IMG/VR virus record: IMGVR_UViG_2718218396_000003
Length of the DNA stretch: 64,000 nt
Direction: 5' to 3' (one strand)
Origin: a virus
Taxonomy: Duplodnaviria > Heunggongvirae > Uroviricota > Caudoviricetes
Positions 3,001 to 6,000 of this stretch are shown here, piece by piece. Positions within the stretch are counted from its first letter, which is position 1, and each line of letters starts with the position of its first letter. Position numbers: made by a program.

Positions 3001-6000
3001 ATCACAAATCGCACTTTCATGAAATTCCATATATCACCTCAAATAAGTGGTTTGCTGCCTAATTTCATTTTCTGGCGACCAACACAAGTCATCTTGCTGT
3101 CAGTTGTTTGGATTTACGGTAGCCTGCCGCGTAAAGAGCTACATTTGGAAGACAAGTTGAGCCTTCATATTTTCTGGTCAACGTTGTCAGTGTTATTACT
3201 TCTGCTCTCATTGCTGGTTTGCGTTTGCATTGTAAGACCACTCGTGATGGGGTTGGCCTGTGTAGTTTGTCGGAGCTAATCGCCTCCTGACTTTGCAGGT
3301 TTGCGCGACGAGCTCTACGGCGAGAAGCTGCGGTGCCTTTAAATTCTGTTTTTCTGGACATAGATTCCTCCCGAATAAACTTTGGCGATGCAATCTCGAA
3401 GCTCCTCCTGAGACGGTTGCTTCGGCATTGCATCCCACAGCTTATGTGGTTGGGTGATCTGGCTTTTCAGCCACGTAGTCGAGAGTCGACGTTGTTTAAA
3501 GAGCCTGCCAGTCTGTTCCATTTGGCTTCCAGCGTCCTGCTGATGGTTAAATAGTACGATATGTACTTCACTTGGTCAATACAATTTGTTCTAAAACGGG
3601 GCGTTTTTTTACAACGCTTTGTATTTAATAGTATTGTTTTTTAGCGTGGGTGTATTGCCTCGGCGATGTAAGGAGAGATCAGAATTGCGTTGTTTAGTGA
3701 GTTGTATCTATTTATTTTCCAATAAATACAATTGGTTATGTGTTTTTTTGGGCGAGAGGAAAAGAAAACCCGGCATGGAGGCCGGGTTGATGATTAGCGG
3801 TGTGGCCTTGAGCGATAATGCTCACACACATGTTCAAGATTTCCATGCCTTATCCGTTCATAGGCATTCACATGAACTTCTCGATCGAATTGGTCATTCA
3901 AATTGTATGTAGACATCTGTGTTTTCTCATATTGGCGGCAGCCCTACAACCGCTTGAAAAAATGTACCAGACGCGCTAAGGTTACATCGCAAATATTGTG
4001 TACCTTAACAAGGGCTCCTTTTGGAGGCTCTGGTTAAACAGCATCAATGTCGGACTGGGGAGTTGGACATTGTGCTGAATGCTTTTGCATTATTGAGGCC
4101 GAACGTAAACCTTCAGAATTGAAGAGATGCGTTCGGCTTCTTCGTTTGTGATATCGTTAGGAATGCCTTTAATCGTTACTGTAACCCCTGATTCAGGTCG
4201 AAGAACTACTGGAAGATCATAGGTATGAAGTGCATTAGCCTTGCCTTCGACTTTTGTTGGTTCGCCAGTCAAATCTTTTTCCTCACTGGATTCTTTGTCA
4301 ATCGGAGTGTATGGGATTTCTTCACCAGACTGGAAAGCTACAAACTTTTTGATTGCACTTTCCATGCGGCTTTTATATGCAGTAATGCTGCTGTCGCTAG
4401 GCTTCGGCTCAGTTGCGTTGATGTATCGCTCGGCAAGCTCATTCACATCAAGCTGAGTAACATCACCCATTTCCTCTTCTTGGACTACCGTTAAGAGGCG
4501 AGCGGATGAGTTTTTTAAATTTCGAGCGGTGGCCTCCTTCATTATGTTCAGCGACATAAGCTCTTCAAGGAAGTCCTTGAATGCCTGCACGCTAACGTTT
4601 GACTTTGCCATTTGCTCTCTCTCTAAGTTATTGACTCAGATCGAGTTTATCCAGGAATTGATTTGCATGCAAGACTCAAGTCTTGAGAATTTCCGTTCAA
4701 GATCCACTCTCAATAAAAAAGGCCGCACCTCTGCGACCTTTCATCTCCTAAATCTCTTTTCTCTTACCTAAAGAAACAGCAGGCTGGGTCAGCCCTAACA
4801 ACTTCAAGTGCATCGGTCAGAGAAAGCTCCGTGCTATACAGGTGTTATTTCATATCTTTTTGCATCCAATAAATTTTCCATCTGTCCAGAGAGCGGATGC
4901 ACTTGATTCTTGTTGATGGCAGGACGTTTTTTCACCTGCCTCACCCTGCCATACAGGACGCTGCTCACCGATATCTATCGTCCGGTCATTGATGTTATAG
5001 ACAATATCCAGATCATTACGGATATACTCAGATGGCCTTATGCTTTCAATGAATAGATGAACTTCTTTTTGACCGCTTGATACTCATGGCCATTAAACTC
5101 CATCTATCCTCTTTACCCAAACGTCTCTTCAGGCCATTGGCTGGCGATAACTTTCCCCACAACGGAACAACTCTCATTGCATGGGATCATTGGATATTGC
5201 GGGTTTAGTGGTTGTAGAAACACCTGACCGCTATCCCTGATCAGTTTCTTGAAGGTAAATTCATCACCACCAAGTCTGGCTATGCAGAAATCGCCGGGCT
5301 CAACAGCTTGCTCAGGGTCAACCAGAATTAACATCCCGTCAGGAAAACTAGGTTTGGAACCTGTTGGTGCGGTCATTGAGTTACCTTCAACCTCAAGCCA
5401 GAATGCAGAGTCACTGGCTTTTTTGGTTGTGCTTACCAATCTCTCCGCATCACCTTTGGTAAAGGTTCTGAGTTCTGGAGAGAACATCCCAGCCTGAACA
5501 TGAGAAAAAACAGGGTACTCATATTGTTTTTTAACTGGGGCCGATGAGTATTCGCCAACAGGTGAAAATGTCCCGTCGTGGTTGAATGATATGTTATCAA
5601 TACCAAGGTATTTAAACACCACACCAATATCACTAAGAGATGGATGACGAGATCCGCGCAACCAGTGTCCAATTCCACCCTGCGTCATACCTAGCTCTTC
5701 GGCTAACTTCTCTTGAGTTATGCCGAGCTCTTTCATTCTGGATCTAGCCAGTTCATACCATTTCATTTTCATGTCCTTATTATTACGCTCTGTACTGGAA
5801 CCATCCATGCACAATGTGTATTTTTACTTGTATTTGAGAAGTACATATTGTATTTTTTATTCGTGGTTACTATGGAGGGCATATGAGCAACCTACGAAAA
5901 TATCGAGAGTCACTGAATATCTCTCAAACAACACTTGCTAAGGCAGTTGGATGCACACAGGGAGCTATCGGACATTGGGAATCTGGTCGTCGCTTCCCAG

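Follow-up and report, generated by a model that had tools for sequence, protein, structure and literature searches.

A probable DUF3024 pseudogene downstream of cI in the immunity region of a lambdoid Stx prophage

Introduction

What occupies a gap of about 375 bp behind the repressor gene of a lambdoid prophage? The question is raised by the viral record IMGVR_UViG_2718218396_000003 (Caudoviricetes), of which a stretch of 64,000 nucleotides (hereafter, the window) was analysed. Its positions 4739-5112 lie between cI (5113-5814, minus strand) and an orphan gene on the same strand. An initial annotation described them as a non-coding spacer with hairpins and tiny open reading frames (ORFs), and proposed that the spacer could be a decayed rex-like gene, a small RNA (sRNA), or a regulatory leader. 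The window is the early-left and immunity region of a lambdoid Stx prophage of the Sp5/VT2-Sakai type. Positions 4612-5112 are 100% identical to VT2-Sakai, Nil2, the Stx1/Stx2-II phages, and the PA-series O157 phages, and they correspond to the ECs1184-ECs1185 intergenic region in Sakai. We show here that the gap is very probably the decaying remnant of a gene of the DUF3024 family, i.e., a pseudogene, with no hidden RNA gene. We also describe how this remnant takes part in the exchange of immunity modules between phages.

Results

The gap is homologous to an intact gene of other phages

A sensitive BLASTN search of the region against 50,697 phage records returned hits of two classes: 44 records with at least 99% identity and 98 records with 80-90% identity. 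Records of the second class annotate the matching DNA as a 342-nt gene encoding a 'DUF3024 domain-containing protein'. This intact gene starts about 60-70 nt past the cI stop in Min27, JLK-2012, P27, the 933W-type phages, and others. In the Salmonella P22-like phages ST160 and SE1, it is known as 'orf24' and is placed after c2. Over its whole length, the window sequence is about 82% identical at the DNA level to the gene of Min27 and the 933W-type phages, and about 81% identical to orf24 of ST160. In a three-way alignment, the homology spans the last ~27 nt of cI, the Shine-Dalgarno (SD) sequence, the ATG, and the whole gene, and ends at the stem of a hairpin.

The alignments and the colinear frame fragments delimit a pseudogene at 4764-5103 (minus strand) of a gene for 113 amino acids (PF11225, PADLOC PDC-S43, phrog_3467), with its start codon ATG at 5103-5101 and its ancestral stop TAA at 4766-4764. 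The intact homologue matches the three profiles with E-values of 1e-30, 4e-41, and 2e-67, respectively. Once the reading frame of the window copy is repaired, its translation scores 89.1 bits against PF11225, for a gathering score of 24.9, and the fragment in the middle frame reaches 25.6 bits on its own. The three frame fragments are colinear with the DUF3024 profile (positions 11-55, 58-81, and 84-111). The remnant also stands where the gene is expected in enterobacterial lambdoid phages, right after a cI-type repressor and on the same strand.

The search for remnants suggested in the initial annotation thus gave clear homology to DUF3024 and bears out the idea of a decayed gene. The qualifier 'rex-like' holds for the position, directly downstream of cI on the same strand, but not for the family: when scanned against Pfam, the intact homologue and the repaired translation both gave DUF3024 as the sole family, with no homology to RexA or RexB. 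The label 'non-coding spacer' misleads, as the region was once coding sequence.

Three lesions disrupt the reading frame

The window copy lacks an uninterrupted ORF of ~113 codons. The first lesion is a deletion of 1 nt in a run of A (5066-5070, minus strand), which shifts the frame at codon 13 and cuts the ORF to 21 codons. In the alignments, this run has five A in the window, six in the IMG/VR contigs L069 and L070, in contig L058, and in metagenome contig L012, and seven in Min27. The second lesion, at 4927-4932 (minus strand), is also a deletion of 1 nt and shifts the frame at codon 59: GAAACAAAC became GAAAAAAC by loss of a C between 4929 and 4930, that is, AAACAAA became AAAAAA. It is shared with strain EC2001 and with L012. 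The third lesion is a nonsense mutation, TGG to TAA, at codon 87 (4845-4847, minus strand), where the tryptophan is invariant in 18 homologues. Since two deletions and a nonsense codon break the ORF, we class the copy as a pseudogene of DUF3024 and not as a functional member of the family.

The residues tell the same story. We defined invariant columns from the 18 homologues, which are 64-91% identical, and found that the repaired protein departs from 6 of the 36 (A2E, Q41R, Y69C, R82Q, W87*, G113R). When each of the 18 members is left out in turn, it departs from 0-2 of them. Sequencing error was considered and can be excluded, as identical lesions are found across hundreds of independent complete assemblies. 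Among 5,426 complete E. coli genomes, 234 carry the same dead copy at 99% identity or more; 158 others have only the 80-90% class, which every listed row annotates as intact DUF3024, and there is nothing between the two classes.

Most of the divergence predates the inactivation

Compared with Min27, the remnant shows a synonymous divergence (dS) of about 1.0 and a nonsynonymous divergence (dN) of about 0.09, giving an omega of about 0.09 (Nei-Gojobori method, computed with a script of our own on only 113 codons). On the branch leading to the window there were 19 synonymous and 16 nonsynonymous changes, for a neutral expectation of roughly 1:4. Taken together, the low dN/dS and this ratio indicate that most of the 18% divergence arose when the allele was still functional. 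Inactivation was followed by some decay: 6 of the 36 invariant columns have changed. The contrast with strain EC2001, of 3 single-nucleotide polymorphisms (SNPs) in the 374 nt of the remnant for 1 SNP in the adjacent 938 nt that include the orphan gene, fits neutral drift and is suggestive, given the small numbers.

No intact allele of the window type turned up in 5.8 billion protein clusters, the 50,697 phage records, or the 5,426 E. coli genomes. The best full-length match of the repaired protein among the clusters is of the 933W type, with 82% identity. The protein matches that are closer than this, P0020-P0023, are gene-caller fragments of variants of the pseudogene.

A terminator closes the remnant

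The initial annotation pointed to a hairpin at 4712-4738, and our analysis confirms it on the minus strand: its folding energy is -15.9 kcal/mol, with z = -4.9, and none of 200 shuffled sequences is as stable. It has the features of a Rho-independent terminator (GGUCGCA-GAGG-UGCGGCC followed by U6), with a G+C-rich stem of 7 bp, extended by A-U pairs, and then UUUUUUAUU; it is predicted to end the transcript of cI and the pseudogene. It is also the mosaic boundary with the 933W-type phages. Min27 has the stem without the U-run, and its sequence continues past the stem into RuvC-like and stk genes.

These elements suggest a simple scenario. Polymerases starting at the cI promoters would run past the cI stop, through the ~340 nt of the dead gene, and halt at 4738-4712, which would make the remnant a 3' untranslated region (UTR) of ~375 nt in the cI message. 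Ribosomes probably still initiate at the preserved SD and ATG, yielding a by-product of 21 amino acids. Judging from the absence of any positive signal, the remnant would have no function of its own. As the recombinants below show, it does act passively, as a homology patch for the shuffling of cI and downstream accessory modules. The orphan gene, past the terminator, should use its own promoter in 4612-4711.

Several points weigh against reading the gap as a mere functionless pseudogene. The estimates of selection come from few codons and from our own implementation. Although bacterial genomes are biased towards deletions, the remnant is still in place. Its near-invariance in 234 genomes is poor evidence of constraint, because most of these are clonal O157:H7. 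Co-transcription with cI and a stop at 4712-4738 are most likely, but they are deduced from the gene order and the terminator. Finally, a stretch rich in A and G (ARN-like) at 4739-4763 lies just ahead of the terminator, a context of the kind known from Hfq-bound 3' UTRs and compatible with Hfq binding.

This last point is one of those that could speak for a regulatory sRNA, either processed from a cI 3' UTR ending at 4712-4738 or expressed as an independent sRNA or antisense RNA, an explanation that we regard as improbable. The strong terminator with its U6 tail follows the A/G-rich stretch AAGAGAAAAGAGAUUUAGGAGAUGAAA, Stx prophages encode many Hfq-bound sRNAs (PMC4104026, PMC7547250), and a local hairpin at 4912-4952 folds somewhat better than shuffled sequences (z about -2.2). 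Yet the 131-nt segment at the 3' end folds no better than shuffles (z = -1.4), conservation with the relatives tracks codons (dN/dS of 0.09) rather than RNA pairs, and the A/G-rich stretch has an indel and a substitution in L069 and L070. An Rfam scan of 3000-7000 with E <= 1 gave no match in the region; its only hits were the ALIL frameshift element of an IS3-family insertion sequence (IS) and one chance hit. A promoter scan found no sigma-70-like promoter within 4739-5112 on either strand. The table of orphan Hfq-CRAC peaks in Sakai (Table S2 of PMC4104026), which covers only the growth conditions of that study, has no entry in about NC_002695.1 1256543-1256916, the counterpart of the gap; the nearest peak, EcOnc20, falls at ~3824-3949 of the window. 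On these three counts, i.e., Rfam, promoters, and Hfq peaks, the initial suggestion of a small RNA finds no support. Two other candidates were set aside: a weak terminator-like hairpin at 4781-4795 is no better than shuffles (z = -0.5), and the Pas sRNAs are located in the late region and are not relevant to the gap.

Residual reading frames and repeats

The pseudogene explains the small ORFs and the repeat noted before. As had been stated, there is no ORF of at least 60 codons with an ATG, GTG, or TTG start in 4739-5112 on either strand; the longest ones with canonical starts have 48 (plus strand) and 44 (minus strand) amino acids. The short ORF reported directly after the cI stop is there as well, at 5038-5103 (minus strand), with 21 codons instead of the 20 first counted (MEFNGHEYQAVKKKFIYSLKA). 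It starts 9 nt past the cI stop, the ancestral SD sequence (AGAGGA, 5106-5111) is kept ahead of its ATG, and it is made of the first 12 codons of DUF3024 followed by out-of-frame codons. The middle frame of the pseudogene is free of stops for 77 codons (4853-5083, minus strand). It has no ATG, GTG, or TTG start, and it is the source of the spurious 'hypothetical proteins' of 44 to 84 amino acids that some annotations and protein databases hold. Examples of such gene-caller readings of the pseudogene frames are the PGAP protein WP_434087148.1, AKI86002.1 of PA4, and P0020-P0023. In AP005153, ORF B57 is an opposite-strand ORF that enters the 3' end of the pseudogene.

Could the gene still be expressed, in pieces or by recoding, as a 21-amino-acid peptide, a 77-codon product, or a frameshifted full-length protein? 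The SD and the ATG are preserved, there are slippery-looking A-runs at both deletion sites, and PGAP and other annotators sometimes call 'hypothetical proteins' of 44 or 53 amino acids in the gap, within a range of 44 to 53. We nevertheless deem this very improbable. The full-length protein requires two separate +1 shifts and read-through of a TAA, and six invariant residues would still be altered; the 77-codon stretch lacks a start. Moreover, natural variants (P0020-P0023, L012) yield fragments of differing structure, none of which is conserved as such.

The inverted repeat to which the initial annotation drew attention exists, with GGCAGG at 4918-4923 and CCTGCC at 4935-4940, but such repeats are no more frequent than expected by chance. 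We observed 2 perfect 6-bp inverted repeats with loops of 3-20 nt, for 1.8 +/- 1.7 expected from 1000 dinucleotide shuffles, half of which (50%) reach the observed count; the repeat is therefore not above chance. It is made of former codons, is nested in a longer pair of 8 nt (ATGGCAGG/CCTGCCAT, at 4916-4923 and 4945-4952), and holds the second lesion in its loop. Intact homologues retain both the CCTGCC(A) arm and the TGGCAGG arm of the longer pair, as ordinary codons (L-P-S and W-Q-G); the GGCAGG arm corresponds to codons (E-A-G) specific to the window allele.

The remnant is part of a mosaic module

The remnant, the terminator, and the orphan gene travel as one module that recombines with other immunity modules at several points. 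In EC2001, a cI and a cro of the 933W type are joined to the complete pseudogene, and the junction lies in the conserved 3' end of cI. In L012, the end of a 933W-type cI and the first ~70 nt of DUF3024 are followed by sequence of the window type; the junction is at about codon 20-25, and accordingly the first lesion is absent and the second and third are present. The IMG/VR contigs L069 and L070 have an open, chimeric DUF3024 gene that switches from the 933W type to the window type (...ACCFFR*) at about codon 98, followed by the same terminator and the same orphan gene for 173 amino acids. In L058, a cI 96% identical to that of the window precedes an intact DUF3024 of the 933W type, and the gene that comes next is a different one.

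One of the recombination joints between the immunity and DUF3024 modules is the end of cI, its last ~27 nt (5113-5141, minus strand; ...QWPEETFG*). This end is conserved across the aligned cI types, which are otherwise different (window, 933W/Min27, L058, L069). Among the 67 IMG/VR loci with DUF3024, 66 have DNA upstream, and all 66 show a cI-like repressor ORF directly upstream. These repressors are of several types, with only about 30% mutual identity. The genes downstream fall in nine unrelated clusters, including RuvC-like plus stk, a ParA-like ATPase, the orphan gene, and others. In the Yersinia enterocolitica prophage L010 (3517-7430), DUF3024 follows a gene for 137 amino acids, in the position of the repressor and with no Pfam family on record, and the slot behind it holds another cargo that looks defence-like, namely an AAA_15/AAA_21 ATPase and a DNA methylase. 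Because the repressor upstream is fixed and the genes downstream vary, DUF3024 marks the boundary between the repressor and a slot for variable accessory genes. Dead or alive, its sequence serves as a homology patch for exchange. The constant linkage (66/66) points to one of two things: the gene is functionally tied to the repressor, or the recombination joint is fixed.

The orphan gene and other neighbours

The orphan gene (4090-4611, minus strand) encodes 173 amino acids, is a homologue of ECs1184, belongs to phrog_2602, and has no Pfam or PADLOC match. ECs1184 could not be deleted from Sp5: the deletion seems lethal to the host for a reason that was unknown to the authors, who consider it most likely that stable lysogeny requires the gene (PMC5155283). 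Its product was a borderline, unconfirmed RNA-binding candidate in TRAPP (PMC7618764). Upstream of the gene, at 4663-4713, there are overlapping palindromes (TTGCATGCAA, CAAGACT-2 nt-AGTCTTG, and CTCAAG-1 nt-CTTGAG), which overlap promoter-like hexamers read by eye on the minus strand (TTGCAT-17 nt-TAAACT). Together, they look like a putative operator and promoter of the orphan gene.

The last option of the initial annotation, that the gap is a regulatory leader (a long 5' UTR) or a promoter region of this gene, is scarcely credible and finds no support: the orphan gene comes next on the same strand, always travels with the remnant, and has an undeletable counterpart in Sp5, but a strong intrinsic terminator stands between the two, the 100 nt between terminator and gene hold their own promoter-like hexamers and palindromes, and L069 and L070 pair an intact DUF3024 with the same orphan gene, which shows that the latter does not need the decayed form.

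If the immunity region has a real sRNA or 3'-UTR RNA, a better candidate than the gap is the stretch of EcOnc20. This orphan Hfq peak (Sakai NC_002695.1 1255628-1255753, minus strand) maps to ~3824-3949 (minus strand) of the window after a shift of ~137 nt. It is flanked on one side by the stop of the orphan gene and on the other by a strong terminator-like hairpin at 3767-3788 (minus strand; AACCCGGCC...GCCGGGTT then a T-run). The stretch also has an ORF for 40 amino acids at 3794-3916 (minus strand).

The rest of the early-left side of the window consists of exo, bet, gam, kil, and cIII on the minus strand, and of an N-like gene at about 3089-3361, also on the minus strand. On the other side of cI, the plus strand carries cro (5883-6098) and cII (6240-6536), followed by the IS3-family insertion and the replication genes. 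The IS3-family element, with orfA at 6689-7015 and orfB at 7012-7902, sits between cII and the replication gene (6689-7902 and beyond), and includes the partial Rfam match to the ALIL frameshift pseudoknot at 6970-7000. There is no IS3-family insertion at this position in Sakai Sp5. This IS between cII and O and a SNP at position 179 set the window apart from Sakai Sp5, to which it is closely related.

Discussion

An unannotated pseudogene in a well-known prophage

What we found, a pseudogene that belongs to a known family and had gone unannotated in a well-known prophage, is ordinary and will not surprise phage biologists. Its value lies first in the annotation. The 500-bp 'intergenic' stretch between ECs1184 and ECs1185 of the well-studied Sakai Sp5 was blank or carried spurious calls of 44, 53, or 80 amino acids in every record examined; it should be labelled as a DUF3024 pseudogene. 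The locus is also a clean example of the shuffling of lambdoid immunity regions, with three crossover points in or beside one small gene, which link cI types to accessory modules. Finally, it draws attention to DUF3024 as an unstudied, repressor-linked gene on the lysogen side, present in some Stx phages and lost in others.

What was lost with DUF3024

Our literature search found no paper mentioning DUF3024, and PDC-S43 comes up only among the systems predicted for one strain. PADLOC lists DUF3024 only as a single-gene candidate for defence. The family extends to the genomes of many other bacterial lineages, at 36-47% identity. We rejected the hypothesis of an obligatory partner gene in these distant bacteria, because the upstream ORFs on the same strand, examined in 47 of the 80 loci fetched from genomes of other species, were heterogeneous; they are toxin-antitoxin, Abi, integrase, and unrelated genes, and include PIN (four), AbiEii (two), ParE, Zeta, AIPR, and integrases. 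The lack of a constant partner fits a stand-alone accessory gene or a gene of defence islands.

In the viral loci, the fixed position of DUF3024 after several unrelated types of repressors, in 66 of 66 cases, raises the question of a partnership with cI-type repressors, whether as a defence or exclusion factor expressed in the lysogen or as a modulator of the stability or induction of the repressor, with its loss altering Sp5/VT2-Sakai lysogens. We consider this unlikely, but it would have consequences. The loss of the gene in the Sp5/VT2-Sakai lineage, where the remnant would be kept as a long cI 3' UTR, would then measurably change lysogens relative to those of the 933W type. The change could concern the exclusion of phages, spontaneous induction (and with it the output of Stx2), or the stability of the cI mRNA. 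In a weaker variant of this reading, the 3' end of the remnant, with the A/G-rich tract and the terminator, may have been co-opted as an Hfq-bound 3'-UTR RNA.

Comparison with known systems

The closest known counterparts of the remnant are the intact genes of Min27 (pMIN27_25, YP_001648916) and the 933W-type phages, and orf24 of ST160 and SE1. They have the same position (first after cI), strand, and length as the window copy, with 81-82% DNA identity, 82% identity to the repaired protein, and an SD sequence 5-9 nt before the ATG. Min27 also shares the hairpin stem after the gene. Unlike these genes, the window copy has two frameshifts, a nonsense codon, and six changes at invariant positions, and it is followed by a true terminator and an orphan gene of the ECs1184 type. 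The next genes after DUF3024 are RuvC-like and stk in Min27 and a ParA-like ATPase in ST160. In the 933W-type phages, the gene is found just upstream of the stk operon that had been named among the possible sources of remnants. The contigs L069 and L070 match the window in the last ~15 codons, the terminator, the intergenic region, and the orphan gene for 173 amino acids, except for an indel of 1 nt and one substitution between the DUF3024 stop and the terminator. They differ from it in having an open ORF, whose first ~98 codons are of the 933W type.

The resemblance to PADLOC PDC-S43 is extensive in sequence, as the intact homologue matches the model from end to end (4e-41). Yet PDC-S43 is a candidate defence system only, and the window copy cannot make its protein. 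The likeness to rexA-rexB of lambda is one of layout: one or more accessory genes downstream of cI, on the cI strand, then a terminator, then the pL side. There is no detectable sequence relationship, and the window has a single gene for 113 amino acids, which is dead. The rex genes, which are co-transcribed with cI and expressed in the lysogen, act in exclusion, something that no DUF3024 protein is known to do.

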